This document shows, piece by piece, positions 79 to 17,308 of a DNA stretch of 64,000 nt. Every line of letters begins with the position of its first letter. Positions within the stretch are counted from its first letter, which is position 1. The DNA is taken from contig JBNKBE010000005.1 in assembly GCA_050287085.1 (NCBI GenBank), positions 1-64,000 on the forward strand, in the 5' to 3' direction. Source of the stretch: Polyangiaceae bacterium. Its GTDB lineage: Bacteria > Myxococcota_A > Polyangia > Polyangiales > Polyangiaceae. Below the pieces are notes generated by a model that was given only the letters and a program-made list of their open reading frames with translations, had not been told where the DNA came from and searched no databases. The position numbers were made by a program, and so were the translations under genes.

Positions 79-543
79 TCAGTGGGTGAGTTCCTGAGCG
101 ATGCGCTGTACGACCGCGGCGAGCGCGCTTTCTACCTCAGCGGCAGGGACGGGCAGCACGCGGTAACCCGCCGCCGCCAAGCGGCTGGCACGCTGGGCGT
201 CTGCGCGGCGCCCCTCGTGCCAGGCGCCGTCGACCTCTACGATGAGATGCGCCTCCGACGCGTAGAAGTCCGCGATGTAGCCCTGAAGTACAACTTGCCG
301 CCGGAACGTGACGCCGAGCTGCTCGGCGCGCAGCGCCTGCCACAGCAGCCACTCCGTGGGCGTGGGCTCTTGACGTATGCCGCGGGCTCGCTGACGAAGA
401 AGGCCGCGCTGGTGTGAGCTTACTTGACCAGTATGGGGTTTCGAGTCCCCGCCACCTGAGCCTTCTCGGCTCGTCGCGGGCGGCGCAGGCGCCGTGACGC
501 GCCACAACTGCAGTGACGAACAAGCTACGGCGGGGCCGCTCAC
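79..543 (-). CDS. DUF559 (Vsr-like PD-(D/E)xK) endonuclease domain protein; true start uncertain
   Basis: RARGIRQEPTPTEWLLWQALR..FRRQ..YIADF..LIVEVDGAWH..GYRVL matches the DUF559 pattern. The first ~30 aa look like non-coding read-through. Confidence 0.8.
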   Translation of the reverse strand: MSGPAVACSSLQLWRVTAPAPPATSREGSGGGDSKPHTGQVSSHQRGLLRQRARGIRQEPTPTEWLLWQALRAEQLGVTFRRQVVLQGYIADFYASEAHLIVEVDGAWHEGRRADAQRASRLAAAGYRVLPVPAAEVESALAAVVQRIAQELTH

Positions 544-2464
544 CCCGCGGCTGCGGGCAAATCCCTTTGCTCCACCAGCCCAATACTCTGAACGCGGTGG
601 GGCTCTGGTGCAGCGAGTTTGGCCGTGCTATCAGCAATGTGTGGACGAAGACACACCGATGTGCGCTGTCTCTGTGAAGGGGGCGCGGGCGCGGCGGCGC
701 TGGGAGGTGTGCGCTCCCTCGGACGCGGCGCTGGCCCCGCGGGGTTGCCTCTTTGCGGCGAGATTGGCGCTGGGTCTTCGGTTGCTGGCAACCCTGCCTC
801 TTGCCTGCAGCGAGACCGCTCCCCACCTCGATCCCAGAGCTTCCCACGGTGACGCGGGCAGCGATGCTACGACGCCAACTTCGACCACTTTGCCGGATGC
901 CCCCCCAGCCCCCGAGTTGGATCCCGGCTTCAAAGCTATCCACCGCTTGAACTCGGCTGAATACAACGCGACCGTAGCCGACGTCCTAGGCACGGCGTTG
1001 CAGCCCGCATCGGCCAACTGGCGAGGGGGTGAGCTTGCGGGATTCAACAACATCGCATCCGTGTTGGGGATCGACGATGCCCAATACGATCGCTACTTCG
1101 GCGCGGCTCAAACGCTCGCCAAAGAGGTCTTTGCGTCCGATACCCTACGCGCGAGGTTCGTTTCCTGCGACATCACCCAGACAGATTGCCCGCGCCAGAG
1201 CATCCAGGCGATGGGGCTGCGAGTATTCCGACGCCCCCTGACCGAAACTGAGATTCTCACCTACGAACGCGTCCACAGAGAGGCAATCGCCCTGGGCGAC
1301 AGCGAAAGCCAAGCCTTGGAGCTAGTTCTCCGAGCGCTCTTGTCGAGCGCAGAGTTCTTATTCCGCATTGAATTCGATCCGGATCCGAGCTCCACAGTCC
1401 CCCATCTCCTGGATGCTTTCGAACTCGCGTCTCGGCTATCCTACTTCTTGTGGAGTAGCGCCCCCGATGAGGAACTGCTCTCGGAAGCAGCCAATGGCTC
1501 GCTGCTGCAACCACCGGTCCTATCAGCAACGGTCGATCGCATGCTGGACGATCCCAGGTCAGAGCGGCTACTCCAGAGTTTCGCGGGACAGTGGCTCGGG
1601 GCGCGACAGGTCGTCGCTCACCCGGTCGCGCTCGAGTTCTATCAGTGGTCGCCCGAGGTAGCCCGGGCCGCAGGGGACGAGATGCTCTCCTATTTCGAGG
1701 AATTCTTTCGGACCGAGCGTTCTTGGTTCGAATTCCCGACGGCTGATATCAACTTCGTCGACGGCTGGCTCTCACGACTGTACGGCATGCCCACCCCGCT
1801 TGGGAGTCACGAAAGAGTTGAGTTCACTGACGACGAACGGGCAGGCTTCTTCGGTCTCGCCGGGTTCTTGGCGCTGACTTCCTTTGATCGGCGCACCTCG
1901 CCCTCCTTGCGCGGACGCTGGATCGCTAGCAACTTGCTCTGTACGAAACTGTCTGCGCCCCCAGCGGCCGTGCCCGAGTTGGCGGAAGGACCAGAGCCTT
2001 CGGAGCTGAATGTCCGCGCCGCCCTAGAGCAGCATCGCCAGAACCCCGAGTGTGCTGCTTGCCATGTCCTCTTCGATGCCTACGGACTGGCGTTGGAGGA
2101 ATACGACCCGGTAGGCCAGCATCGCACCCACTATGCCGAGGGCGTTCCCATTGATGCCACGGGCATAGTGCCCGCCGCCAACGGCACTTCGAGTGAGCAG
2201 ACCATCGTAGGACTCGACGGGTTGGCCCACTCCGTGGCGAGCAATCCGCAATTTGGCCGCTGCTTGATGGAGAAGCTGTTCACCTACGGCCTTGGCCGCG
2301 TCGTCAGCGGCACCGACTTGCCCTACCTGGATCAGGTGCAAGCCAGTTGGACCGCGGCGGACAGCGTGCCTACCATTCGTCGTCTGATCCACGGCCTTAT
2401 CCTTTCTGAGCCCTTTCGCCTTCGAAGGGGAGAAGGCGTCGCGATGGTAGAGGAGTCCCTATGA
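494..2464 (+). CDS. DUF1587/1595/1592/1588/1585 (PSD-type) lipoprotein with one CxxCH haem-c motif; real start probably downstream of 494
   Basis: HRLNSAEYNATVADVLG, FLFRIE, FELASRLSYFLWSSAPD, RTSPSLRGRWI, CAACH, lipobox-like LPLAC. The stop overlaps the next start (ATGA). Confidence 0.9.
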   Translation: MTRHNCSDEQATAGPLTPRLRANPFAPPAQYSERGGALVQRVWPCYQQCVDEDTPMCAVSVKGARARRRWEVCAPSDAALAPRGCLFAARLALGLRLLATLPLACSETAPHLDPRASHGDAGSDATTPTSTTLPDAPPAPELDPGFKAIHRLNSAEYNATVADVLGTALQPASANWRGGELAGFNNIASVLGIDDAQYDRYFGAAQTLAKEVFASDTLRARFVSCDITQTDCPRQSIQAMGLRVFRRPLTETEILTYERVHREAIALGDSESQALELVLRALLSSAEFLFRIEFDPDPSSTVPHLLDAFELASRLSYFLWSSAPDEELLSEAANGSLLQPPVLSATVDRMLDDPRSERLLQSFAGQWLGARQVVAHPVALEFYQWSPEVARAAGDEMLSYFEEFFRTERSWFEFPTADINFVDGWLSRLYGMPTPLGSHERVEFTDDERAGFFGLAGFLALTSFDRRTSPSLRGRWIASNLLCTKLSAPPAAVPELAEGPEPSELNVRAALEQHRQNPECAACHVLFDAYGLALEEYDPVGQHRTHYAEGVPIDATGIVPAANGTSSEQTIVGLDGLAHSVASNPQFGRCLMEKLFTYGLGRVVSGTDLPYLDQVQASWTAADSVPTIRRLIHGLILSEPFRLRRGEGVAMVEESL

Positions 2465-3918
2465 GTCACGCCGTGAGTCGCAGAGCGCTGCTACGCGGCG
2501 CGGGTGTCACATTAACACTTCCGTGGCTGGAGTCCCTGCTGCCACGAAGCGCCAGGGCGCAATTGGGGACCCCACCGAAGCGCTTCCTGCCTGTCTTTCT
2601 GCCGAACGGTGCGTCGGATTGGTGGTGGCCCGCCGCCGCTGGCGCGAACAACGATTGGCAGCTAACACCGGTACTCGAACCGTTCGGAACAGCACTGAAA
2701 GCCAAGTTGAGTGTCGTTTCGGGCCTTGAAAACGGCTCCGTCTTCAGCACGGATGGCACGGGTTCGGTCGAACCTAGCCACGGGCGTTTGGCAGGAGCCT
2801 GGCTGACCTGCGTCGACGCCACGGCCGTCCGAGCGGAGCTCGAAAGCACGGAGGCCAACGGGATCTCGGTAGACCAAGTACTCGCGCAAGCCACACCCTT
2901 TCGAGAAAAGACCGCCATCTCGTCGCTGCAAGTCGGCCTGTCTACGCCGCTGAGCAACTGCGATGGCCAGCCCTGCTCCAGCAGTCGCAGCATCTCCTGG
3001 GCCAGCCCCACCCAGCCCCTCTACAAGCTGGTAGACCCGCTGGAGGTCTTCAACACGCTAGTCACTTTGGCTCAGCCGCAAGACCCCACGGGGAGCGCGG
3101 CGGTCGAAGCCAAGAAACGTCTGGCCCGCAATCAGAGCGTACTGGACGCCGTCTTGGAGAACGCCACACACACTCGAGGACGTCTTGGCTCGAGCGATAG
3201 GCGCCGGCTGGACGAATTTCTGGACTCTGTCCGCGCGGCAGAGCGACGAGTCACGAACGTGTCAACCAGCATGGGAGGGCTTGGTTGCTCCGGACTCGAC
3301 GCGCCGAGCTTGCACACAGAACAGTCCGCTGAGGCGCCGCGCCAGACCACGGTAGCCTATGACAAAGGGGCTCACGCCGATGCCATGAACGATTTGATTG
3401 CCCTGGCATTTCAATGCGACATCACGCGTGTCATTTCATACATGCTGGAGGATGAGCGTTCTGAGTTCACCTACGACCACGTCGAAGTTCGCGCTTTCAC
3501 CCAGGACGGGTCCACCAGCAAAGGCGGTCTGTGTCCAGAGTATCACGTCGCCCAACACAGCGCCGGGGACGACTTCGCCACCATCACCTGGTGGAATGTA
3601 GGCCGAGTTGCGGAGCTCTGCCGCAAGTTGGATGCCATTGAAGAAGCCCCCGGCGTGACCCTGCTGGACAACTCGGTGGTACTTTTCGGCGGCTGCATGC
3701 ACGGCGGCAATCACCTGGCCGTCGACTTGCCGCTCGCATTGATTGGGGGTGGCAATCTTGGCCTGCGTGGTGACCAACACCTGGTACTGAACAATCGCCC
3801 GCTACGAGATCTGTACGTCACCCTCATGAACCAGGTCTACGGGGCAGAGGTCGAGACCTTTGGACAGAACCTCTTCGGAGCCCCTCCGGCGCCGATCGAG
3901 GAGCTGCTTTCCGTTTGA
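2461..3918 (+). CDS. DUF1552 (HXXSHH) family protein with Tat-type leader
   Basis: SRRALLRGAGVTLTLPWLESL leader, SVDQ, SISW, SVLD, ALAFQCDITRV, YHVAQH, TLLDNS. Confidence 0.9.
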   Translation: MSHAVSRRALLRGAGVTLTLPWLESLLPRSARAQLGTPPKRFLPVFLPNGASDWWWPAAAGANNDWQLTPVLEPFGTALKAKLSVVSGLENGSVFSTDGTGSVEPSHGRLAGAWLTCVDATAVRAELESTEANGISVDQVLAQATPFREKTAISSLQVGLSTPLSNCDGQPCSSSRSISWASPTQPLYKLVDPLEVFNTLVTLAQPQDPTGSAAVEAKKRLARNQSVLDAVLENATHTRGRLGSSDRRRLDEFLDSVRAAERRVTNVSTSMGGLGCSGLDAPSLHTEQSAEAPRQTTVAYDKGAHADAMNDLIALAFQCDITRVISYMLEDERSEFTYDHVEVRAFTQDGSTSKGGLCPEYHVAQHSAGDDFATITWWNVGRVAELCRKLDAIEEAPGVTLLDNSVVLFGGCMHGGNHLAVDLPLALIGGGNLGLRGDQHLVLNNRPLRDLYVTLMNQVYGAEVETFGQNLFGAPPAPIEELLSV

Positions 3919-4046: not shown

Positions 4047-5137
4047 TCAGTCGGCGTAGCAATCGTCGAACTGGGTGTCGAAGGGCAGAAACTCGGCGAC
4101 TAGCTCATAGAGTACTGGGTCGTACACAGCGAGCTCGTCACGCGTATCGATAGCGTTGTGGATACCGTCCGGAGGCTCCGCTTCGAGGTTCGTGTTGTAC
4201 CAATCCTGGACTCCCTCAGCCCAGTACTCTTGGTAGCTCTCCAGTGCGTAGGTATTTGCGTAAAGCCCAGCGGCGAGCGCATCTTGGTACGCTCGCTCCA
4301 AGCGGCCTCGAAACGTAGGGTCAACGCGGAACAACCCGTTGACGGACATCGTGTGAGCAAATTCGTGAACGCAGATCCCCTCGCCCCTCCAGCGGTCGAG
4401 CGTCCTGTTGCAGAGAATGTTTTCCTCTGCACAAGACGCGGCGGGAACGCCCCCCAAGCCGCGAGCGCGCTCATTGATCGAATCGGGCTGGTCCCGGTAT
4501 TCAGGTATGTCGTTGGTCTGCTCTTGTTCACCAATAACGGCAAATCGCGTATGGGTCTCGAGCAATGACGCCAACACATCAGGGCGCGCTGACACCATGT
4601 CGAGCACCAATTCGCAGGCGCGCTCTAGAGCAGCATCCGCCGGACCAGCAGAGGCAATTACGGGTAGACCTCGCGCCAACGCAAGGGGGGTACTGGGAGG
4701 CCCGCGTCGCCCTCACCCATCGGGTCGAGGCCCGCGGCCCCACCTTGAGCCCCTTCTGCGCCGGCCGAGGCGCCCGCGTTCGCGGCTCCCGCCGTGACCT
4801 CGTCCATCCCTTGCTCCCGACTCGGCCCTCCCCCAAGCGAAGCCCCCCCTTGCTCCGACGCGTCCGAAGCGCCAGCGGCGTTGTCGGGTGCTTGCGGTAC
4901 TCCCATGCCCGGCGAACCCGAAGCGCCCCCCGCTCCGCCCCAATCCGACGGCGAGCCGGCACTGGGAGTGATCCCGATGCCCTCAACCGAAGGCGCCCCG
5001 CCCCCGACCTCACCCCTCGCTGCGTCGTCGTTGGCGTCGCCACATCCAACGGATCCAAACGCCCCCACGCTGACTAAAAGATGGGCCGCCCGGAGCAGCA
5101 GGGCACTGCCAAACTCCGCGCCGCAAGGGGCGTCCAT
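4047..5137 (-). pseudogene. Secreted zinc metallopeptidase-like lipoprotein split over two frames (frameshift or deletion near 4680-4700)
   Basis: ORF 4658-5137 has a lipobox (SVGC) and a Gly/Ala/Pro linker. ORF 4047-4679 has the domain with RARGLGG, CAEENILC, HEFAH (HEXXH) and QEYWAEG. The frames differ and the junction is next to a G6 run. Confidence 0.65.
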
Positions 5138-5565
5138 GAAGCTCGCGATTTCTCCATGCAGAACAGAACGGGCCCAAGCCCAAGCGGACTCGCCCTCGAG
5201 AGGGCGCCCCTAGAACGAAGCACTGCGCGCGTGAAACGCTGCGTCAGGAACCGGCCGCTCGGAATATTTTAGCACCACATGCCCAATTTTGACTGTGCAC
5301 GTCGCCATTCTTGAACGGCCAACGCCTGCTCCGCTCGCGCGTCGGCGGCCGCTCGCGCCATGCGCTCTCCAGGCTAACACCCCGACCCGAAGAAACGTCA
5401 ACCAGGTTCGGTCGGAATGTGATGAAATGCTCGGCAGCGCGATGGGATAGATGCGACAACCCGCGCCTGCATCCAGTCCAACGCCGCGCCGCCCCCGATA
5501 CCATATAACTCGCTCCGGCGCTGCGAATGGGCCATGCTCGCGCCTCCGGACAGCAATCGATACTC

Positions 5566-6924
5566 ATGCGCTACCCTCTCCACCGCTGGTTCTTCGTCCT
5601 GGCGCTCGGGACCCTCCCCAACTGTCGAGGCGACTTCTCGGGCGATCTGCCGCGTGGCTACAGCAAGACGAGCCACAGCAACACAGCCGCGCCGGACTAC
5701 GAACGGCTCTTCGACACCGAACACGTCCATAGACTCGATCTCGTAGTGGCCCCGGAGGTGCTCGAGTCCATGCGAAGTGACCTCAATGTCGCCCTCTACA
5801 CCGGAGCGAAGCCGCTGACGGAAGCGGTGACCGTCGTCTATGACGACCGAGAGTGGGAACATGTCGGGATGCGCTTCAAAGGGCTAAAGAGCGCGAAGAA
5901 CGCCCTCGAAGATGGGCGAGAGAAGTTCTCATTCAAGCTTACGTTCGACGCCTATGAGGATGAGTTCGATGAAACCAAGAACCAGCGCTTCTACGGTTTC
6001 AAGAAGCTCAATTTCTCTGCCAACCCCAACGACAACTCGCAGCTACACGAAGTGCTGGCTTCGGAAGTCATGCGCCAAGGGGGCGTGCCGACAGCACGAG
6101 CGGCATTTTGGCAGGTATTTGTCGATTCAGGGCGCGGCGCGACGTACTGGGGCTTGTACACAATGGTGGAAGACCCCGACGACAGTCCACTCCAGGAGTC
6201 CCAGCTGAAGGAGCGCGGAGGTAATCTCTATCAGGCGGTTGCGCCTCTCGCCGACTGGAAGAGTTTCGATCCAGCTGCTTTCCAAAAGGAAAACCACAAG
6301 GAAGCGGATGACTTCTCCGATGTAGCCTCGGCGATTGCCACCCTCAACTCCAATGAAACAGGCCCCCAATGGCGCAGCGCCCTCGAGAGCTTGTTTGCGG
6401 TCGATGTATTCTTGGATTGGCTTGCGCTCAACACCGTCATGGTCAACGGTGATGCGTACGGCTGCAAGGCTGACAACTACTACCTATACGGCGTTCCGAG
6501 TGAAGGCGGACGGCTGCACTATATTCCTACCGACTTCAATGCTGCCTTCGTCGGGAATATGGCATCGTGCGGCTCGAAGAAGAGCACAGCGCGCAAAGAC
6601 ACTCCGGAAGACCTCTTCTACCCGACGCTCGGCATGGAGATGCCCCTCATATCCCGACTCCTTGCCGACGAGACCTATCGAAAGCGCTACCGAGAACACC
6701 TCGCAGGGGCTCGTCAGGTACTGGATGCCGAAGCGGTGCTCCACCGCGCGCGTGAACTACATGAACTCGTCGCTCCCTATGTGACCGGCGACCATGGGGA
6801 ATCAGAACGGTACACCAGCGTGAGTTCCCCGAGCGCCTTCGAGAACTCCGTCGAGGAGGCCCTTAAGCCACACATCAGGGCTCGAAACGAATTGGTCGAC
6901 GCCGCGCTCGACGAGGCGAAATGA
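5566..6924 (+). CDS. CotH-family atypical protein kinase, predicted lipoprotein
   Basis: GMRFKG..KFSFKLTFD, YWGLYTMVE, NGDAY..DNYYLY, IPTDFN. Leader MRYPLHRWFFVLALGTLPNC is lipoprotein-like. Confidence 0.88.
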   Translation: MRYPLHRWFFVLALGTLPNCRGDFSGDLPRGYSKTSHSNTAAPDYERLFDTEHVHRLDLVVAPEVLESMRSDLNVALYTGAKPLTEAVTVVYDDREWEHVGMRFKGLKSAKNALEDGREKFSFKLTFDAYEDEFDETKNQRFYGFKKLNFSANPNDNSQLHEVLASEVMRQGGVPTARAAFWQVFVDSGRGATYWGLYTMVEDPDDSPLQESQLKERGGNLYQAVAPLADWKSFDPAAFQKENHKEADDFSDVASAIATLNSNETGPQWRSALESLFAVDVFLDWLALNTVMVNGDAYGCKADNYYLYGVPSEGGRLHYIPTDFNAAFVGNMASCGSKKSTARKDTPEDLFYPTLGMEMPLISRLLADETYRKRYREHLAGARQVLDAEAVLHRARELHELVAPYVTGDHGESERYTSVSSPSAFENSVEEALKPHIRARNELVDAALDEAK

Positions 6925-7724
6925 ATGACTCAGCGGCGATATTCGCCCCAGTGACCTCAGCGGGACCATTTGCCCTTCCCAGCGTCGAACATCTCCCCGA
7001 GGCAACACCGCATCTGCTCGCCAAGCGAGCCTTGTTGGAACGGGTCGACCGCAAATTTGTCACGACCACCTCTCGTCTCGCGGAACTGCTGCTCGGACTT
7101 GGTACGGCTTATCCCATTTTGCTATCTGAAGGAAACACTTGGGCGCGCTACCAAACATGCTACCTCGACACCGAGCAGCTCTCGATGTTTCGCGAGCACC
7201 TGCGTGGTCGGCGTCCCCGCTACAAGATCAGGATGCGACGCCATGTGGACCGCCACCGCGCGTTCCTCGAGATAAAGAAGAAACGGGCCAACGAGCGCAC
7301 CGAGAAGTTCCGTACCGAGCGTCCCTATGAACAAGACGCACTAACGCACGAAGAACTTGCTTTCGTTGCACAACACACTCCATTCGATTCAGCTGCGCTC
7401 AGTCTCAGCGTTTGGACCAACTTTTACCGAGCCACCTTGCTCGGCGTTGAGAGCGAAGAGCGCCTTACGATCGACGTGGGGCTTCATTTCGAACGAAACG
7501 GACAAAGCGCACAGCTGCAACAGCTTGCTATTGTCGAGCTCAAGCAGCGACGCCAGAGCAACCTAACGACGGCAGCCAAGCTGCTTCATGCAATGCGCAT
7601 ACGAGAGCAGTCTATGAGCAAGTACTGCACCGGTGTTGCGCACGTGCACGAAGGCGCTCCAGAACGCTGCCGCCAACTACTCCTCAAGAAGCTATCGAGG
7701 TTGAACAAGTGGAAGACTATATAG
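6921..7724 (+). CDS. VTC (polyphosphate polymerase / triphosphate tunnel) domain protein
   Basis: RVDRKF, YLDT, RYKIRMR, FLEIKKK, TEKFR, ERLTID, IVELK, SKYCTG. ATGA overlap with the CotH gene. Confidence 0.88.
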   Translation: MNDSAAIFAPVTSAGPFALPSVEHLPEATPHLLAKRALLERVDRKFVTTTSRLAELLLGLGTAYPILLSEGNTWARYQTCYLDTEQLSMFREHLRGRRPRYKIRMRRHVDRHRAFLEIKKKRANERTEKFRTERPYEQDALTHEELAFVAQHTPFDSAALSLSVWTNFYRATLLGVESEERLTIDVGLHFERNGQSAQLQQLAIVELKQRRQSNLTTAAKLLHAMRIREQSMSKYCTGVAHVHEGAPERCRQLLLKKLSRLNKWKTI

Positions 7725-8386
7725 GATTCGAACTGCTCTTTGATCCGGTCGATGCGACTCGCTTGGTAGTTCGCCTTGCCATCGAGATGTTTTTCGCCGC
7801 GATCGTCATCCAAGGGGTCTACTGCCGACGCTACCAGAACTCCGAACACGCTCTTACGTTCTGGCTGTTCAGCACCGTCACGTTCAGCCTCGCCTTTCTA
7901 TTGCGGAAAGTGCCAATGGAACTGGGCTTCGCGCTCGGTCTGTTCGCCGTCTTCGGGATCTTGCGCTACAGGACCGAATCCATCGGCGTCAAGGACCTCA
8001 CTTATCTCTTCGTGATCATCGGCCTGGCGCTCATCAACGCCCTCGCCAACAAGAAGATTAGTCTGGTGGAGCTCATGATCGTCGACGTGGTCATCGTGCT
8101 CACCGTCGTATTGCTCGACGGAGCGCACAAGCAGACTCACGAAGGAAGCATGCGGGTCCTCATCGACCGCGTCGATCTGCTGACCCCAAGCCGTCGCCCA
8201 GAGCTGCTTGCGGAGCTTGAGCAACGGATGCAGATCACTCCCAGTCGCGTGGTGGTTCACGAAGTCGACCTACTGCGCGACACGGCCCGTCTCTCGGTCT
8301 ACTTCGCAGACCCTGGCACAGGAGGTCCACAGTCTTCAACGAGCCCCTCCAAACCACGGGAGACCTCCCTCCCCAGCGCATCATGA
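7709..8386 (+). CDS. DUF4956 multi-pass membrane protein
   Basis: GFALGLFAVFGILRYRTESIGVKDLTYLF signature and several hydrophobic helices. Overlaps the VTC gene end. Confidence 0.88.
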   Translation: MEDYIGFELLFDPVDATRLVVRLAIEMFFAAIVIQGVYCRRYQNSEHALTFWLFSTVTFSLAFLLRKVPMELGFALGLFAVFGILRYRTESIGVKDLTYLFVIIGLALINALANKKISLVELMIVDVVIVLTVVLLDGAHKQTHEGSMRVLIDRVDLLTPSRRPELLAELEQRMQITPSRVVVHEVDLLRDTARLSVYFADPGTGGPQSSTSPSKPRETSLPSAS

Positions 8387-9057
8387 ATCCCCTGAATAGA
8401 AGGCTACGGAGACTGGCTGCCTGTCTGCCAGTGCTCATGCTCATTGAGTCCCCCGCGCACGCGCAGTCGTTGGAACCACAAGACAATCTCCAAGTGAGAC
8501 TTGGTGCTTCCTTGCGGCAGCGTGTGACAAAGAAGTGGCAGCTATGGCTTAGCCCTGAGTTGCGCACCAAGGAACGCCAGCTCGACCGGTATTTGCTGGA
8601 CTTCGCCGTGGGCTACAAGGCCAGCAAATACCTCCACCTAAGAGCCTTGATGAGAGGGGACCTCAATCGAAGCAACGACGGTCTTGGGTACGGAGTTCGC
8701 CCCGGATTGGCGGCTACCGGGCGCCTGCCTTTGGACACCGTCGAAGTGGGTCTCAGATTGATGTACACGTTCGACACCGGATATCTTCGCGATGATGAAC
8801 AGCGACTCCGCTACCGGGCGACGCTGGAGTACGACGTGCCCGACGTCCCCTTGGACGTGGAAGGGGAAATCGAGGCCTTTCACCACCTGGTCAAGCAGGA
8901 GGTCTTCAAGATGCGGTATGGCCTGCAGTTAGGCTACAAGCTGGTCAACGCGAAGCAGGCCGACCACTTCGTGTATTGCGGGTACCGCCTGGATTACTAC
9001 TTGGATCAGCCCCGCAACGTCCATATTCCGGAAGTCGGCTACAAGCTTCATCTCTAA
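8383..9057 (+). CDS. Outer-membrane beta-barrel protein, DUF2490-like
   Basis: Signal peptide ending AHA-Q, alternating amphipathic strands, RLRYR and MRYGLQLGY motifs, C-terminal VGYKLHL. ATGA overlap with DUF4956. Confidence 0.7.
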   Translation: MNPLNRRLRRLAACLPVLMLIESPAHAQSLEPQDNLQVRLGASLRQRVTKKWQLWLSPELRTKERQLDRYLLDFAVGYKASKYLHLRALMRGDLNRSNDGLGYGVRPGLAATGRLPLDTVEVGLRLMYTFDTGYLRDDEQRLRYRATLEYDVPDVPLDVEGEIEAFHHLVKQEVFKMRYGLQLGYKLVNAKQADHFVYCGYRLDYYLDQPRNVHIPEVGYKLHL

Positions 9058-9139: not shown

Positions 9140-11206
9140 CTAGGGGGCCGAAGGAATGACCGATTGCCAATCCCAGTAGCAGGCGTGCGTGTTCACGCAG
9201 CGCTTCGTTTCGCTGTCACAAACTCCACTCTTGCACTCGGCATTGAGTGTGCATGAGGTCAACTTGCGCGGCTGACATGCACCCAGGCAATAGGCTCCCG
9301 GTTCGCAGACGGCGTTGGCTTCCTGCGAACAGTTGTCGAAAATGCGCGCCTGCGGCTGGCAGGTGAAGGGCTCACTGGTGTCATTCTTGGCTCGACGGGC
9401 GCAGTTCAACTCGGGACACAAGTAGGCCGGATGCTCGGCGCTTGTCCCGCACATCTCCCCGTTCTCGTACGCGACTGGAGTACACACGCGGTCCTGCGAA
9501 TCGCAGTACGTCACCCCCGGCTGACACAATGAACTCGCGGGATCGCAGGGTTCGTCGACAGCCAGGACCTGCTGACATGTGCTTGACGCCATCACGTTTT
9601 GGTCGAGATTCCTCGCACAGACGAGGCCGTCGGCAGCGCAGAGCGTGTTGTCGAAGTAGCAATCGATATTGTCGCTACTGGATGCGTCTTCAATCGTCGA
9701 AGGTGCTTCACATTGACCGTCAGCGCAGCAGCTGTCGCCCGGACACGCACCGCACGCCACGAAGGTACCGCACGAGTACCCTTCGTCGGCACAAAAGTCC
9801 TTGAATAGATCGAGATTGCAATACCGCGTGACGTCCGCTGGAAACTGGTCCGCATTGAATTTGCAGGTCGCACGCTCACGGGCAGGAAACGCCGAGAGGT
9901 CGACGCTCACGGTCGCGTCTCCAGTGGTGGCAGAGGTGCAATACGCTAGGAGATACGTCCTGTCGGGATACTCCGCCACCCGCTCCGCGATCTCGCCAAA
10001 GGCCTCTGCCCAATCCGCCGGCGTGGGAGCCAGAAACGAGCCGTCGCGTCCAATCGCGCCCAGATCCTCGTCGTCGATGTCAGAACTGATCCCCACCGAA
10101 ATAACGTTAACGCGCGTATTCTGGATCAAGGCTGCATTGAGCTTTGCATTCGATGAATCTCGACCGTCGGAGATGACAACAGCCGTGCCCGTGGTCAGCA
10201 CTCCACCTTCAGTGACCAGATGCCGCAGCGCTCGTACCCGCTCGACAGCTTGGACGCTCCTTTCGACCGCTTGATACAAGGCCGTTCCTTCGCCACGAAC
10301 CAAGCTGACGACGCGCTCTGGCTCCTTCTCGAGGGTTTCCAGCGCTGCGTCCAGCTCCGCCACGTCGGTGGTGAACGGTACATATTCCGCGACGAAGCGC
10401 CCAAAAACCAGAATGCTGATCGAAACCGGTGGGCTCCCAGGCGCGGGTTGAAGACTGTGCACGAAGGTGCGGATCTGGGCTACTAACTCTGAAAGGGCCT
10501 CGGCCTTCTGCTTGTCGCCGCTCACCCCCGTAACAGAGTCTGAGACGTCGATTGCGATGGCCAAGTAGGACTCGACACCGCGCTCGATGACCGTCGCGAC
10601 GCTCTCCTCGTTGTCCCGAATGTCGCGACCGTTCTCCAGAACGACAAAAGCCTCATTCAGGTCGCCTAGGTCTTCCGGGAGCACGGCGGTGCCCGCGCAG
10701 TAGTCAACGGCGAAGTACATGGCAACGGCAGGCTCGTCGAGCGATTGCCGACAGCTCGCTTCCTCAAGATAGCGGATCTTCTTGCAGCCCTTGTCGACGA
10801 CACACACGACTGCGTCGTCTTCGCCCTCTGCGACGTAGCCGTCGTCGCACACACACGCGAGATCTCCAAAAGCCGTCTCCACGCAGCGTCCGTGCCCCCG
10901 ACATGTGGACTCACCACAGTTGGCCGTGCCGGCGCCACCATCGCTACTAGTACCCGCATCGGGGACCGCGTTACCCGCATCGCCCGCGTCGGGAGTGGAG
11001 GCGTCGGAAGCCGCATCGGCCCCCGTCGCTCCCCCCGTGGGTGCACGAGCGTCGCGGCGCGTGCTGCCTCCCTTGGCGCCTGACGCCACATCGTCTAGGC
11101 GCGGCGCCCGATGCTCGCCCTTGCTACATCCGCACAGTACGAGCAACACCACCTGGCTGACGAATGCCAACGCCCAACTCCACGATCCCTTTGATCCGAG
11201 CATCAC
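9140..11206 (-). CDS. VWA-domain lipoprotein with EGF-like and multiple Cys-rich modules
   Basis: Lipobox LCGC, EGF-like CRGHGRC..CVCDDGY, MIDAS DVSDS, GTALY, VISDG, Cys-dense C-terminal third. Confidence 0.8.
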   Translation of the reverse strand: MMLGSKGSWSWALAFVSQVVLLVLCGCSKGEHRAPRLDDVASGAKGGSTRRDARAPTGGATGADAASDASTPDAGDAGNAVPDAGTSSDGGAGTANCGESTCRGHGRCVETAFGDLACVCDDGYVAEGEDDAVVCVVDKGCKKIRYLEEASCRQSLDEPAVAMYFAVDYCAGTAVLPEDLGDLNEAFVVLENGRDIRDNEESVATVIERGVESYLAIAIDVSDSVTGVSGDKQKAEALSELVAQIRTFVHSLQPAPGSPPVSISILVFGRFVAEYVPFTTDVAELDAALETLEKEPERVVSLVRGEGTALYQAVERSVQAVERVRALRHLVTEGGVLTTGTAVVISDGRDSSNAKLNAALIQNTRVNVISVGISSDIDDEDLGAIGRDGSFLAPTPADWAEAFGEIAERVAEYPDRTYLLAYCTSATTGDATVSVDLSAFPARERATCKFNADQFPADVTRYCNLDLFKDFCADEGYSCGTFVACGACPGDSCCADGQCEAPSTIEDASSSDNIDCYFDNTLCAADGLVCARNLDQNVMASSTCQQVLAVDEPCDPASSLCQPGVTYCDSQDRVCTPVAYENGEMCGTSAEHPAYLCPELNCARRAKNDTSEPFTCQPQARIFDNCSQEANAVCEPGAYCLGACQPRKLTSCTLNAECKSGVCDSETKRCVNTHACYWDWQSVIPSAP

Positions 11207-11353: not shown

Positions 11354-12541
11354 TCAGGCTCGCCCTTTGAGCATACCGTGCCAGTACAGACTGGGCAGCG
11401 CATACGCTTTGAGCGCATACATGGTATAGCGCTCCTCAGCCTGATCGAAGGGAAATGTTTCCATGATCTTGCCATCATAGCCGAACTCCGCCAGCATCAC
11501 TTTGCCGTATCCGGTGACCAGCGGACAGGAAGCATAGCCGTCGTAGCTAGCTGGGAGGGGTCGTGCGTCACGAAACGCCAATAGATTCGCCACCAGCACA
11601 GGAGCCTGCTTGCGAATCGCCGCTCCGGTTTTGGAACACGGCAGACTACTGGCGTCGCCGAGTGAGAACACGTTGGGAAAACGGGTGTGCTGCAGGGTGT
11701 GGCGATCGACCTCAACCCAACCACCGTCTCCCGCCAGAGGGCTGCGCTTCACGAAATCGGGAGCGCTTTGCGGTGGCACCACGTGAATGAGATCGTAGTT
11801 GAGCACGAGTTCTGACTCTCCGCTCGTGCTGCGGAAGACCGCTTCTTTGGTCGCCGGCCGTATCTCCACGAGGTCCCGCTGGAACTCAGTCTCGATATTC
11901 CGTTCTTTCACGATTTCACGTAGTGGCGCCGCGTACTTCGGAATGCCAAAAATGCCAGCAGTCGCTGAAACGTACTTGACGGCGATTCGATCGCGAACGC
12001 CGCGACGTCGAAACGCCTCTTCGCTCAGATACATTGCTTTCTGCGGCGCCCCAGCGCACTTGATCGGAGTCGCGGGGAAAGTGAACAGGGCGTTGCCTGA
12101 CGACAGCTTCGACACCGCCTCCCAGGTATAGGGAACGGTCTGATAGGAGTAGTTGCTGCAAACGCCATCCTTGCCCAATGCTTCAGGCAAGCCCTTGACC
12201 TTGCTCCAATCGAGCTGAATCCCCGGCGCGACAACAAGCTGTCTGTATAGAACCGTCTTGCCCGAGTCGGTGCTGATGGAATTGCTTTCCGGTTGAAAGC
12301 CGCTGACGCGATCACGGAGCCAGGTTACGCCTTTGGGCATAACCCGCCGCATTTCTCGCGCGGTCGTCTCCCGCTGAAATATCCCGCCTCCAACCAACGT
12401 CCAAAGCGGCTGATAGTAGTGGTATTCCGCAGGCTCAAGTACCGCCACCGTGAGTTCGGGCTTTGCTCCAAGCAGGCGAGCCGCAACCGTAATACCAGCC
12501 GTACCCCCGCCAACAATCACTACGTCAAATACATCTGTCAT
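11354..12541 (-). CDS. sqr: Sulfide:quinone oxidoreductase (type II-like)
   Basis: GGGTAG FAD motif, HYYQPLWTLVGGG, IKCAGAPQK, LGD, KTGAAIRKQ, YDGYASCPLVTG (both catalytic Cys). Confidence 0.9.
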   Translation of the reverse strand: MTDVFDVVIVGGGTAGITVAARLLGAKPELTVAVLEPAEYHYYQPLWTLVGGGIFQRETTAREMRRVMPKGVTWLRDRVSGFQPESNSISTDSGKTVLYRQLVVAPGIQLDWSKVKGLPEALGKDGVCSNYSYQTVPYTWEAVSKLSSGNALFTFPATPIKCAGAPQKAMYLSEEAFRRRGVRDRIAVKYVSATAGIFGIPKYAAPLREIVKERNIETEFQRDLVEIRPATKEAVFRSTSGESELVLNYDLIHVVPPQSAPDFVKRSPLAGDGGWVEVDRHTLQHTRFPNVFSLGDASSLPCSKTGAAIRKQAPVLVANLLAFRDARPLPASYDGYASCPLVTGYGKVMLAEFGYDGKIMETFPFDQAEERYTMYALKAYALPSLYWHGMLKGRA

Positions 12542-12607
12542 GCGCTATCCTCTCCACGACCCACTGCAAGCGACCGCCACCGCCGTTCGCCGACCCCAAA
12601 GTTTCGC

Positions 12608-13261
12608 CTATCCGCGTCCGTGCAGCTGCTTTGGATTGGCCCCCAAGCCCGCCCCGAAGCGCCCCAGTACCTGAAGGGCAAAGCCGACGGCATGCTGCAC
12701 GGGCTCCGTTCCCATGGCACGGATCACCCCAAACAAGCCGAGCGGTCGTGGAGGGGCGGCTTGAGCCTCAGCAATTGCTTGAGCAAACGCCCTGACTGCC
12801 GAAAGCGTGCCGCTTTCGAACAGCGCCGAGTCAAGCAGTCCACGAAAACGCGGTGAGGCGAATAGTGCGACCGACCGCACCGCCGCATCCATCAACCCTG
12901 TTGCCGTCTCTTCGACGCGCATCCCGCCGGTCTCTAGCCGCGACAATGCTTCGTCGGCGCTGTCTGCGGCAATGGCTACCATGTCGGGCATCCGCTCCGC
13001 GAGATCGACGAGCATTCGCAGCGAACGCAGCGTTTCCGGCCGAGACATGCGCTCGACGAGTGCCGTCAGCTCGCGGACGCGAGCCGCGACGTCCCCCACA
13101 GACGCGGCCTGCTCGTCCACCGTGTCGGCAGCGATGGCGAAGAGACTTGGCAGACTCTCCGCTAGCTCGGCGAGCTTCTGCGTATTGGCTTCGATTCGTT
13201 CTAGACGCGTTGCCAAATCAGTCCCCGGCGCGGCCCCAGATTGTGTCTGTCCCTCGTTCAT
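12608..13261 (-). CDS. DUF1641-like helical protein
   Basis: Repeated AIAADT/SxDE helices and C-terminal LGLFGVIRAMGTEPVQHAVGF resembling DUF1641. Lies between pdo and sqr. Confidence 0.7.
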   Translation of the reverse strand: MNEGQTQSGAAPGTDLATRLERIEANTQKLAELAESLPSLFAIAADTVDEQAASVGDVAARVRELTALVERMSRPETLRSLRMLVDLAERMPDMVAIAADSADEALSRLETGGMRVEETATGLMDAAVRSVALFASPRFRGLLDSALFESGTLSAVRAFAQAIAEAQAAPPRPLGLFGVIRAMGTEPVQHAVGFALQVLGRFGAGLGANPKQLHGRG

Positions 13262-13348
13262 GTCTTGTCCGTTCGTCCTGTTTACCCTCACCCTGCTAGC
13301 GACGTCGCTGCTATCGACGCTGTAAGGGTCGGCTCGAATGCACCCGAC

Positions 13349-14236
13349 TCATAGCGGGCTCCCCGCGTCATCGGTCGGGCGCGTACGATTCAAGGGAATC
13401 GTGAGATAACGTATGCCATTTGCGTGGGCCGGCGCAAGCTTTCCGGCGTTAGCGTTAACCTGCAAACTCTGGTAGATGAGCCGGGGTGGTGCGAGTCGCG
13501 CGTCGCGTTCGTCTCGTGCCCGAGTGAAGTCTTCCTTGCGCGTTTCCGCCCTCAGGATGGGATTGCACTTCTTGGACTTGCCGATCGTCGTCTCATACGC
13601 CAGCGTGCGACCTTCTGGGAGGTAGTCGTGTCCGACGAAGACCCGGGTTTCGTCGGGCAGCGAGTAGAGACGTCCATGAATGGAATCGTACAACTCGGCA
13701 GAGCTGCCATTGGGAAAGTCGGCCCGCCCTGTTCCGTAGTCGTCCATGAATAGCGAATCGCCGGTGAACACTGCATCGCGAATCTTGTAGCTCACACATG
13801 CGGGTGTGTGACCTGGAGTCGCGATCACCTCTATGACAAGCGCACCTGCCGCCAACGTCTCGCCATCAGATACCAAGCGATCAAATTGCGAACCATCAAC
13901 CGCGAAGTCTTCGGGCAAGTCGAAGACCGCCTTGAACGTGCTCTGAACCTGCTTGATGCGTTCACCGATCACCACTGGAGCGTTGAGGTTGCGTTTGAGC
14001 AACTGAGAGCCCGTGAGATGATCTGCGTGGGCGTGCGTTTCGAGCACGTAGTGCACCCGAAGGTTCTGCTCGCGCACACGGCCCAATACTTCCCCCACCG
14101 ACTCGGTGCTCGTCGTCCAGCGCAACGCATCAAAGTTGAGCACTGGGTCGATAACCACCGCGTCGCGGGTGTCCGGATCCCACACCAGGTAGGTCAGTGT
14201 GTTGGTGGGTTCATCGAAAAAGGCTTCAATTTTCAT
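13349..14236 (-). CDS. pdo: Persulfide dioxygenase (ETHE1/Blh-type MBL fold)
   Basis: [38 protein letters not shown]. Start taken at MKIEAFF. Confidence 0.88.
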
Positions 14237-14374
14237 GACGGGGTCCTTTCCATAGGAGGGCCAAAGGTTCACGAGAGCCGACAAAGTCCGAAACTCGCCT
14301 CTGAAGCGAGCCCTGCGACGCGGTGCGCCCAACCGCCCCGCCGCGGCCACTCTGGCGGCCTCACTCACCTCCTC

Positions 14375-14390
14375 TGCAGCACCCATGCCA
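14375..14390 (-). promoter_or_regulatory. Putative sigma54 (-24/-12) promoter for pdo-DUF1641-sqr
   Basis: Minus strand reads TGGCATGGGTGCTGCA (GG-N10-GC), about 140 nt upstream of the pdo ATG. Confidence 0.6.
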
Positions 14391-14787
14391 ACGGCGACCA
14401 GCGCCCAGAGGCACGCGTCTTCCAGCGTAGATCCCCAGGTCACCGCACACCGACCCAGACGCTCCGGGCCGCTCGCGGGGCCATCGCGCAACGCTTTGCA
14501 TCAACCGCCGAGACTCGTTGAAACACCGCCCCCCGGGCGACGGCGCGCAGCCCGGCGACGCGCCCAGGGGAACTGCAGCTCTGGGTCACGGCTCAAAGGC
14601 CGGCAGCGTCTCGCACTACAACATGTCCGTCGCTATCCGGGAGATAGCGGACGGCTCCGGCGAACCAGCGGTCCCAAACGCAGCGGCTGCAAGTTTCCTC
14701 GAATCGAGCTCCGCGTCCCAGCGGCGAAGCGCTCGCCCCGCCACCGGGACGTTGGAGGGGGGACGCGGGTCTGGTACATTCCCCGAC

Positions 14788-15349: not shown

Positions 15350-17308
15350 ATGCCTCGACCTGTGATGTTACTATTCCGCTCATTTCTCTCGCGCGCCTTT
15401 GCTCGTGCTGAATCCACCTGTGCGACGCGCTCGACTGCAGGCCAAGGAATGCTGGGCGCGCCCCTGGGGCGAGCCCGCTCTCGCGGACTTCAATCTCAGC
15501 TCGGTTGCGTTCAACTCGTCTCCGCAGCGCTCGTCTCGCTCCTTGTCGCCGGTTGCGCTAAGGGCACGTCGGAACGAGCCAAGCCCAGCCCCCGCGATTC
15601 GCTGGTACCGACGCTCCGGCGAGACCCTCTACCCGAGGTCGACGCGAGCGTGCCGGAGTCGCAAACCAGCCGTCTGGCGAGATTGCACATGCCCACCGAC
15701 GAGCCCTTGGACGATGTTCCAAAGGCATTGCGCTGTTCAGGCGAGCCGGTATCCCGAGTCATGCGACGCTTGAATCGTCGCGAGTACAACAACACGGTTC
15801 GCGACCTCCTGGGGGACAACTCGCGCCCAAGCGACGCGTTTCCGGAAGACGGCTTCGGCGACAGCTTCGACAACAACGCGGCGGCGCTGAGCGTCAGCCC
15901 GCTGCTCATGGAGGGATACCAGGCAGCCGCCCACGCGCTCGGGGAAGCGGCCGTCGCCAAGGAGTCTCCAGTCTACGAAGAATTGCTCGGGTGTAGCCTT
16001 GCGCAGAAGGGCACCCTCGGCTGCGCCCGCGAAACACTCTCCGCCTTCACGGCTCGGGCATTTCGGCGACCCCTGCTGGACGCCGAGCTGGAGCCTTTCA
16101 TCGAGCTGTTGCTATCCGCCCGAGACGAAGGACTGACCTACCCACGGGCACTTCAGGTGACGCTTGAAGCGGTATTCTTGTCGCCCAATTTTCTCTTTCA
16201 GATCGAGCGTGACGTCGATCCAGAGACAAGCGCGGCCCACCGTTTGACCGCTTTTGAGGTGGCGTCCCGTCTCTCCTATGGCCTGTGGGCCACCATGCCG
16301 GACGACGCGCTCTTCAAGGCCGCCGCCTCAGGTGAACTCGATACACCGGAAGGTGTTAGTGCTCAAGCCGAGCGGATGCTCGATGATCCGAAAGCAGAAG
16401 AGCTGTTGCACTCTTTCGTGGGCCAATGGTTGGAGGTCAATGACATCTCACGTACCAACGCTCCTGCCACCGAGCTCTTTCCCGACTACAGTCCGGAGGT
16501 GCAAGCAGCGATGGAGAACGAGACACGTCTGTTCATGCGGGACATCGTACAAGGTGAAGTCCCTTTCGAAGAGATGTTGACCGCGGACTTCACCTACGTA
16601 AACCAGACGCTCGCGAAGTTTTACCAACTCGAGGGAGAGTTTGGCGACGAGTTCGAGCGGACGTCGCTCGAGGGCAGTGAACGACGGGGACTTCTGAGCC
16701 ATGGTTCCATTCTTACGGCGACAGGGGCGCCAACCCGAACGTCGCCGGTACGCCGCGGCGTCTTCGTCCTTTCCAATCTATTGTGCTCCCCGCCCCCTCC
16801 GCCCCCCCCAGGCGTGCAGAACAACCTCGACGGGCCTAGCGCCGATGCAGACGCAGGCGTACCACCGCTGGCGGAACGCCTGGCTGCTCACGCAGAAGAC
16901 GCCCAATGCGCCGGCTGCCACGCCCTGATGGATCCCATCGGATTGGGACTGGAGAACTTCGACGCGGTCGGACGCTACCGACTTGAGGACGAGGGAGAGT
17001 CAATCGACGCGCGCGGCGAGATACTGGTGGATGGAGAGACACGCAGCTTCACTGGCCCGGTCGAGCTCGGAGAGCTGTTGTCCGAAGACCCAAGACTTGC
17101 GCGCTGCGCTACCCAGAAGCTCTTGACGTATATGCTGGCGAGAGAACTTACGAAGAACGACAACGACAACTGCCGTCTGCAGGCGCTGCTAGACGCCTTC
17201 ACCGACTCCAGCTCGAACTTCAGAGACCTGATAACGAATCTAGTCCAAACCGACGCATTCCGCGCCCGGCTCCCCCCCAACACTGGGTCGCAGAAGGAGG
17301 ACAAGTGA
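15350..17308 (+). CDS. Second DUF1592-type haem-c lipoprotein; start may be downstream (e.g. 15449)
   Basis: LLVAGC lipobox, RRLNRREYNNTVRDLLG, FEVASRLSYGLWATMPDD, RTSPVRRG, CAGCH, GLENFDAVGRYR. Confidence 0.9.
   Translation: MPRPVMLLFRSFLSRAFARAESTCATRSTAGQGMLGAPLGRARSRGLQSQLGCVQLVSAALVSLLVAGCAKGTSERAKPSPRDSLVPTLRRDPLPEVDASVPESQTSRLARLHMPTDEPLDDVPKALRCSGEPVSRVMRRLNRREYNNTVRDLLGDNSRPSDAFPEDGFGDSFDNNAAALSVSPLLMEGYQAAAHALGEAAVAKESPVYEELLGCSLAQKGTLGCARETLSAFTARAFRRPLLDAELEPFIELLLSARDEGLTYPRALQVTLEAVFLSPNFLFQIERDVDPETSAAHRLTAFEVASRLSYGLWATMPDDALFKAAASGELDTPEGVSAQAERMLDDPKAEELLHSFVGQWLEVNDISRTNAPATELFPDYSPEVQAAMENETRLFMRDIVQGEVPFEEMLTADFTYVNQTLAKFYQLEGEFGDEFERTSLEGSERRGLLSHGSILTATGAPTRTSPVRRGVFVLSNLLCSPPPPPPPGVQNNLDGPSADADAGVPPLAERLAAHAEDAQCAGCHALMDPIGLGLENFDAVGRYRLEDEGESIDARGEILVDGETRSFTGPVELGELLSEDPRLARCATQKLLTYMLARELTKNDNDNCRLQALLDAFTDSSSNFRDLITNLVQTDAFRARLPPNTGSQKEDK

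Follow-up and report, generated by a model that had tools for sequence, protein, structure and literature searches.

A conserved VTC-DUF4956 gene core with interchangeable conduits and secreted kinases: a candidate polyphosphate supply line in a Polyangiaceae bacterium

Introduction

Genes for a CotH protein, a polyphosphate polymerase and a DUF4956 protein have been described as accessories to the pel clusters of streptococci, clostridia and bifidobacteria (bioRxiv 10.1101/768473), and such genes have been placed in NELoc-2 of C. perfringens (PMC11677781). Here we analyse an operon of a Polyangiaceae bacterium in which the same three families are encoded contiguously, the polymerase being represented by a VTC (triphosphate-tunnel) domain protein, and are followed by a DUF2490 outer-membrane beta-barrel. 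The operon lies in a 64,000-nt stretch of contig JBNKBE010000005.1 (the window), to the whole of which positions refer; loci and genomes carry L and G labels, G000 being the source genome.

In S. intermedius the proteins encoded by SIR_1594-1592 have been modelled, and the DUF4956 protein (SIR_1592) was called MgtC-like with an ACT domain on the basis of a CDD assignment; the authors considered that polyphosphate (polyP) may stay cytoplasmic, reported that the trio was not found outside pel loci and proposed no export role (bioRxiv 10.1101/2024.04.20.589940, PMC12345266). All three knockouts (CotH, VTC and DUF4956) still produce Pel, and in artificial sputum medium aggregation falls by more than 50% when DUF4956 or CotH is lost (PMC12345266); an earlier sequence-only reading of the window, which knew of no functional characterisation, had missed this work. 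A table row for B. thetaiotaomicron shows DUF4956 adjoining DUF2490 (PMC10434189). The operon studied here resembles the Gram-positive trio in its secreted CotH, cytoplasmic VTC protein and DUF4956 membrane protein with an ACT domain, and differs from it in that the locus has no pel operon, the cell is diderm and a porin is added. We regard it as a version, in a diderm and independent of pel, of a trio that has been published but not explained.

Two further systems invite comparison. In the yeast VTC complex (Vtc4/Vtc3/Vtc1; PDB 3G3Q) the channel is lined by basic residues (PMC9911596), and nine Vtc4 residues are listed as needed for polyP synthesis or metal binding (bioRxiv 10.1101/2023.01.27.525886). 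Hydrolases and cyclases of the triphosphate tunnel metalloenzyme (TTM) type require an acidic patch that is missing from Vtc4 (PMC4641920). The CotH protein, in turn, belongs to the same family as the Bacillus spore-coat CotH (PDB 5JD9/5JDA).

Results

The sequence-only reading had claimed four overlapping genes, and their open reading frames, coordinates and overlaps were all confirmed (Table 1). It had also asked for the families to be verified with profile hidden Markov models, and all four proteins (CotH, VTC, DUF4956 and DUF2490) exceeded the curated Pfam cut-offs. ATGA stop/start overlaps join CotH to VTC (6921-6924) and DUF4956 to DUF2490 (8383-8386), and VTC and DUF4956 share 16 nt (7709-7724). 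Since the flanking genes sit on the opposite strand, a divergent one at 4658-5137 and a convergent one for a VWA protein at 9140-11206, the four genes form a self-contained unit. The source genome carries one copy of each. Neither a sigma-70-like promoter for the operon nor a terminator at its end was found. The order CotH-VTC-DUF4956-DUF2490, on one strand, was repeated in 14 of 173 other loci, and the arrangement is therefore not due to chance; the four-gene operon is real. A Pel link for the source genome was rejected, as no PelG match was present in this 97%-complete genome or in 4 relatives and the operon flanks are unrelated.

The 173 DUF4956 loci comprised 60 hand-picked from 176 matches in the phylum (20 strong and 40 weaker, long contigs being favoured) and 73 of the 80 closest hits, 7 recognised duplicates having been removed; 20 of another 25 matches from Bacteroidota, 7 from Pseudomonadota and 13 records of a plasmid collection made up the rest. 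To label the neighbours we used local profiles built on seed members that Pfam had confirmed, and in the co-occurrence counts Bacillota, Actinomycetota and archaea were spot-sampled only. We found DUF4956 in 152 of 301 genomes from the phylum, in 24 of 81 in a Bacteroidota-centred sample and in 6 of 151 in a Pseudomonadota-centred one. Loci with the trio were found in Myxococcota, Bacteroidota, Pseudomonadota, Deinococcota, Actinomycetota and Bacillota; the trio thus occurs outside pel loci and across phyla, contrary to its authors' report. The expectation that the gene association recurs elsewhere was borne out both by these six bacterial phyla and by the repeated four-gene order.

VTC and DUF4956 are the conserved core of these loci, around which the other parts swap. 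In 157 of the 173 loci a VTC gene lay within 6 kb of DUF4956, one of these genes being a fragment, and in 135 the distance was at most 500 bp; of the 16 loci without VTC, 4 were cut by contig ends and 12 were not. Among genomes G001-G080, all 35 VTC-positive genomes carried DUF4956, 2 had a weak DUF4956 match only and 43 had neither. Pairwise distances of DUF4956 and VTC were correlated (rho 0.81, 152 pairs), also within the two DUF4956 subtypes (0.70 and 0.72, with permutation maxima of 0.15 and 0.10), which indicates joint inheritance and not contact.

We then compared the active site of the VTC protein (267 aa, PF09359 as its sole domain, no hydrophobic segment) with that of Vtc4. Single-sequence PDB searches with the VTC and CotH proteins gave nothing significant, but family profiles did match, and the best solved structures for VTC were Vtc4 3G3Q (E 7.5e-4) and then Vtc2 3G3O. 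In the profile alignment, Vtc4 residues K200, R264, R266, K281, R361, E426, S457 and K458 correspond to the identical residues K45, R104, R106, K119, R170, E206, S233 and K234, and these eight are identical in 147 of 154 VTC homologues. At the four presumed equivalents of the glutamate positions of TTM hydrolases and cyclases, three residues are basic here (R41, K129 and K208) and one is acidic (D43). R41, D43 and K129 are tentatively matched to the plant enzyme's glutamates by sequence motif rather than by structural overlay. The position of K208 follows published numbering (PMC4641920). As eight of the nine Vtc4 residues are kept and basic residues appear to occupy most of the acidic patch, we read the enzyme as a probable polymerase, with some doubt left; the possibility of a hydrolase or cyclase, on which the sequence-only reading would have fallen, is disfavoured by this Vtc4-like active site. 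As in the yeast complex, VTC is accompanied by a small membrane protein that crosses the membrane several times and conserves arginines. Unlike in yeast, an SPX domain is missing, catalytic domain and membrane part are separate proteins, DUF4956 (weakly MgtC-like) stands in place of DUF202/Vtc1 as the partner, the position of Y359 holds a Phe, and outer-membrane conduits and client kinases accompany the module. The module probably works like the eukaryotic VTC complex without being a member of it.

The AlphaFold2 model of DUF4956 showed five helices and a C-terminal ACT-like domain (mean predicted local distance difference test score, pLDDT, 84). An R86-x-R88 motif is near-invariant, with R86 in 170 and R88 in all of 173 sequences, and topology would place it on the cytoplasmic side. 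Fold searches with the model gave no match at E <=0.001, only generic helical bundles (best Z 9.8), which says nothing for a new fold, and no VTC chain was among the listed matches. The DUF4956 profile matched neither the PDB nor the DUF202 (Vtc1-family) gene of the source genome. This gene (G000 C5:228008-228205, L200) lies on the operon's contig about 220 kb away and is probably unrelated to the operon, because it was unmatched in 4 other genomes tested, 3 of them shown to carry VTC. With respect to MgtC, one DUF4956 homologue matched the Pfam family at E 3.5e-4, under the cut-off, the source protein had no MgtC match in the Pfam scan, and the DUF4956 profile aligned to one MgtC with a probability of 1.3%. 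An apparent VTC-DUF4956 fusion in L090 was rejected as an assembly-gap artefact (run of N).

The DUF2490 model is a beta-barrel following a signal-like helix (pLDDT 89). Its top fold matches were the acidic-sugar porins NanC (Z 16.9, root-mean-square deviation 2.7 over 172 aligned residues) and KdgM (Z 16.9, 2.3 over 157), with other small barrels scoring about 1.5 Z lower; identity to both is 11-12%, and DUF2490 is filed as a separate Pfam family. Conserved arginines, which might face the lumen, are a further likeness: R61, R91, R106, R125, R143 and R178, together with E164, are kept in at least 90% of 41 sequences. The outer-membrane barrel of the sequence-only reading is predicted to be anion-porin-like. 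It is one of several conduit types near DUF4956, DUF2490 occurring in 52 of the 173 loci, an OprO/P-like porin in 25 (15 of 16 tested match PF07396, 13 above cut-off) and an HlyD-type adaptor in 40, with a single overlap; a TolC-like protein is found in 20. The HlyD/TolC, porin and DUF2490 conduits are thus mutually near-exclusive, and all are tied to the VTC-DUF4956 core. The split partly follows the two DUF4956 subtypes, and within one subtype DUF2490 and porin were together in 0 loci against 10.7 expected. In L045, L048, L051, L052, L055, L060 and L063 an HlyD-type adaptor fused to a phytase-like propeller, and then TolC, directly follow DUF4956; the L045-type layout is tripartite-exporter-like, with DUF4956 as the sole inner-membrane part.

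Kinases vary in the same manner. Near DUF4956, 64 loci had CotH and 26 had a PPDK_N-domain protein; 3 had both. The dikinase-like protein replaces CotH in loci, the overlap test giving 2 loci versus 7.2 expected. Across genomes, CotH was matched in 32 of 35 module genomes versus 9 of 43 module-less ones, and at least two CotH matches were seen in 27 of 35 versus 0 of 43, a difference that holds in every genome-size bin; the highest number in one genome was 15. A secreted dikinase-like protein with a His domain and an ATP-grasp domain was present in 24 of 37 DUF4956 genomes versus 2 of 42 others (G002-G080), and one client or the other in 34 of 35 module genomes. CotH and the dikinase-like lipoprotein therefore both track DUF4956 across genomes, and the fixed four-component system of the sequence-only reading gives way to one in which CotH and DUF2490 are swappable accessories.

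The PPDK_N proteins are mostly about 650-700 aa long, and 24 of 31 aligned rows carry a lipobox-like Cys by a crude pattern. A conserved His motif precedes the ATP-grasp domain in 28 of the 31, and the ATP-grasp K, R, E, Q and R residues are kept in 29-30. This order resembles that of glucan water dikinase (GWD), and a weak Pfam match to the GWD His domain (E 0.012-0.022) was seen in 3 of 6 tested. No description of a secreted dikinase-like family was found in a literature search that most subscription papers lay beyond. The family also occurs at L006, L020, L069, L080, L156 and others, and away from the operon in the source genome (Table 1). The gene of a lipoprotein, c10 (G000 C3:1442-2584), often adjoins the dikinase-like gene; 0 of 5 c10 members tested had a Pfam match.

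The CotH family profile matched B. cereus CotH 5JD9 at E 2e-55. The source protein is a probable lipoprotein with a non-canonical lipobox (L-P-N-C20), the Cys20 of which aligns with the lipobox Cys of homologues; an in-frame ATG lies upstream at 5527. As in the spore-coat protein, both catalytic aspartates (D296 and D323) are kept. The two differ in that this one is a probable lipoprotein of a non-Bacillus cell, has no spore substrates and is phyletically tied to DUF4956, and in that the adenine sandwich Tyr142/Trp245 of 5JD9 is replaced by Gln223/Thr322. These residue roles are second-hand from bioRxiv 10.1101/469122, and a one-residue offset between 5JD9 chain index and residue number is assumed. 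About 3 in 10 module-linked CotH domains are without one or the other aspartate (D296 is kept in 50 of 72 and D323 in 52 of 72). The adenine-pocket pattern is silent on the donor, because module-less CotH proteins are much the same at the Tyr position. The convergent VWA/EGF-domain protein (- strand, 688 aa, Cys-rich, with a lipoprotein-like N-terminus) is a possible CotH substrate.

Other arrangements were seen around DUF4956. In five loci of marine Flavobacteriales type an inorganic pyrophosphatase directly follows it (Table 1); the protein encoded upstream, some 560-615 aa long and with a Pfam beta-helix match in 2 of 5, is possibly a decayed CotH fusion. L193 (4313-10335) encodes a lamin-tail protein, an OprO/P-like porin, a divergent DUF4956 with a weak MgtC match and two CotH proteins; no VTC was found in its genome, which is 93% complete and contains 10 matches to CotH. 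Gram-positive DUF4956 loci sit among glycosyltransferases.

Elsewhere in the window, a PSD1-5/DUF1592-type protein and its DUF1552 (HXXSHH) partner are encoded at 494-3918, with no link to the operon as far as tested, and a protein looking similar to the former at 15350-17308. A flavin adenine dinucleotide-dependent oxidoreductase, a DUF1641 protein and a metallo-beta-lactamase-fold hydrolase stand in a row at 11354-14491 (- strand), which we take to resemble a sulfide-oxidation cluster (sulfide:quinone oxidoreductase and persulfide dioxygenase).

Table 1. Coordinates of the operon genes and of related genes elsewhere
Feature	Location	Strand	Pfam match
CotH-family atypical kinase, probable lipoprotein	5566..6924	+	PF08757, E 2e-52
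VTC (triphosphate-tunnel) domain protein, soluble	6921..7724	+	PF09359, E 6e-25
DUF4956 inner-membrane protein, GTG start, candidate channel subunit	7709..8386	+	PF16316, E 6e-43
DUF2490 outer-membrane beta-barrel	8383..9057	+	PF10677, E 7e-10
Dikinase-like protein, source genome	G000 C3:2656-4941	-	
Dikinase-like protein, source genome	G000 C1:55842-58988	-	
Inorganic pyrophosphatase after DUF4956, signal-like N-terminus (mostly lipobox-bearing in this and the next four)	L127:4018-4581		
Pyrophosphatase after DUF4956, signal-like N-terminus	L128:7603-8160		
Pyrophosphatase after DUF4956, signal-like N-terminus	L132:7589-8152		
Pyrophosphatase after DUF4956, signal-like N-terminus	L134:7584-8231		
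Pyrophosphatase after DUF4956, signal-like N-terminus	L139:7583-8143		

Discussion

To our knowledge the envelope has no standard ATP supply. In the mechanism that we propose, VTC would polymerise polyP from ATP where a predicted DUF4956 oligomer opens to the cytoplasm, and the chain would travel through this oligomer into the envelope; there the CotH lipoprotein would draw on exported polyP as its phosphoryl donor, and the DUF2490 porin would give polyP a way across the outer membrane. VTC and DUF4956 would form the supply core, and CotH, or elsewhere the dikinase-like lipoprotein, would be its client, with surface proteins or glycans as likely substrates. A donor supply line is the simplest account, because two unrelated kinase families depend on DUF4956, three conduits are tied to it and VTC is near-constant. 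The signal-bearing pyrophosphatases after DUF4956 in 5 loci and the aggregation defect common to the DUF4956 and CotH knockouts of S. intermedius also speak for it. What we observe are the genes present, their conservation, the active-site residues and the folds predicted; from these we infer synthesis, docking, transport, its direction and the use of polyP as donor, and we put this reading forward tentatively, at somewhat under an even chance. Its widest form, a prokaryote-wide synthase-translocase that powers extracytoplasmic phosphorylation by sending polyP through three interchangeable conduits to at least two secreted kinase families in place of ATP, seems to us rather doubtful.

A number of observations weigh against VTC-made polyP as the exported donor. 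The ninth Vtc4 residue, Y359, is F168 here, and the position holds Phe in 76 of 93 members of the source protein's subtype, while all 61 members of the other have Tyr; in yeast, the Y359F change reduces polyP (bioRxiv 10.1101/2023.01.27.525886). The acidic-patch residue D43, or a Glu, is kept in 149 of 154 VTC homologues. R86 and R88 are the only near-invariant basic residues of DUF4956, in which no likeness to Vtc1 was found by sequence or fold. Of the split VTC synthase/translocase that the sequence-only reading had proposed, the Vtc4-like enzyme and its pairing with DUF4956 stand; the channel half is an analogy only, with no Vtc1 likeness and a weak link to MgtC. At least 3.2 kb of sequence lies on either side of DUF4956 in the 12 uncut loci without VTC, and no VTC match was found anywhere in the genome in 5 of 5 such cases tested. 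The source genome encodes PPK1. The folds of CotH and of the dikinases are known to work with ATP, and both the OprO/P and the NanC/KdgM types of porin serve in uptake. Module-linked and module-less CotH (72 versus 8 sequences) are not told apart by the adenine pocket. Eleven client matches occur in module-less genomes (9 CotH and 2 dikinase, G071 having one of each kind). A wider DUF4956 profile, run with no positive control, had no match in 5 genomes that have CotH or dikinase but no module. The co-occurrence counts overstate the association, because kin are not independent. In S. intermedius the VTC knockout is unnamed among aggregation-defective strains, and the DUF4956 and CotH knockouts differ in the direction in which Pel level shifted (PMC12345266).

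Several of these points would be explained if DUF4956 were an essential exporter of a ready-made donor, ATP or PPK1-made polyP, with VTC as an optional booster, gate or regenerator at the cytoplasmic face. VTC-less loci have DUF4956 beside porin and CotH, HlyD/TolC or a secreted dikinase (L193 among them), PPK1 was present in 4 of 4 VTC-less genomes tested, both client folds use ATP, the dikinase-like family retains its ATP-grasp residues, and in S. intermedius DUF4956 and CotH matter and VTC does not (PMC12345266). This alternative accounts better for the loci without VTC and for the knockouts than export of VTC-made polyP does. However, VTC is adjacent in about nine of ten loci, co-diverges with DUF4956 and has a near-invariant polymerase site, and a porin or TolC conduit would be expected to leak ATP; we consider export of a ready-made donor unlikely, though it is the main alternative. 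The two export readings, polyP through VTC and ready-made donor through DUF4956, together account for about two thirds of our expectation.

Transport could instead run inwards, with external polyP or phosphoanhydrides entering through porin and DUF4956 and VTC, reversed or acting as a hydrolase, yielding ATP or phosphate (phosphate scavenging). The OprO/P-family porins, the NanC/KdgM-like barrel, neighbouring phytase-like propellers, a PiT/PHO4 transporter (L067 and L177), secreted pyrophosphatases and the retained acidic-patch residue are consistent with this, but HlyD-type adaptors (40 loci) and TolC (20) are efflux parts, the second-metal site of the hydrolases is mostly replaced by basic residues and the tracking of the module by secreted kinases is left unexplained, so that scavenging appears quite unlikely. 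The view closest to the published one involves no transport: DUF4956 would be an MgtC-like regulator with an ACT sensor, VTC would produce a signal, be it cytoplasmic polyP or another, and the genes would be co-regulated helpers of exopolysaccharide or envelope biogenesis. The assignment of SIR_1592 to MgtC and the suggestion of cytoplasmic polyP (bioRxiv 10.1101/2024.04.20.589940), the DUF4956 member with an MgtC match and the glycosyltransferase neighbours in Gram-positive loci favour it. It leaves unexplained why three mutually exclusive outer-membrane conduits are tied to the core and why two unrelated secreted kinase families depend on DUF4956, and the source genome and 4 relatives have no PelG; a purely regulatory role is therefore, in our judgement, distinctly improbable.

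For the preferred reading, export of VTC-made polyP, no paper on the biochemistry of bacterial VTC domains or on polyP export by DUF4956 was found in a search that reached neither most subscription papers nor supplements. All three families (CotH, VTC and DUF4956) are matched in B. thetaiotaomicron, C. glutamicum and M. acetivorans, so tractable hosts are available, and with one part per compartment both the donor supply of the envelope and a route of polyP to the surface are directly testable. Secreted CotH kinases are common in non-sporulating bacteria, and the module bears on the question of their phosphoryl donor. If polyP export by the core is correct, the yeast VTC polymerase would gain a bacterial counterpart with a different channel.

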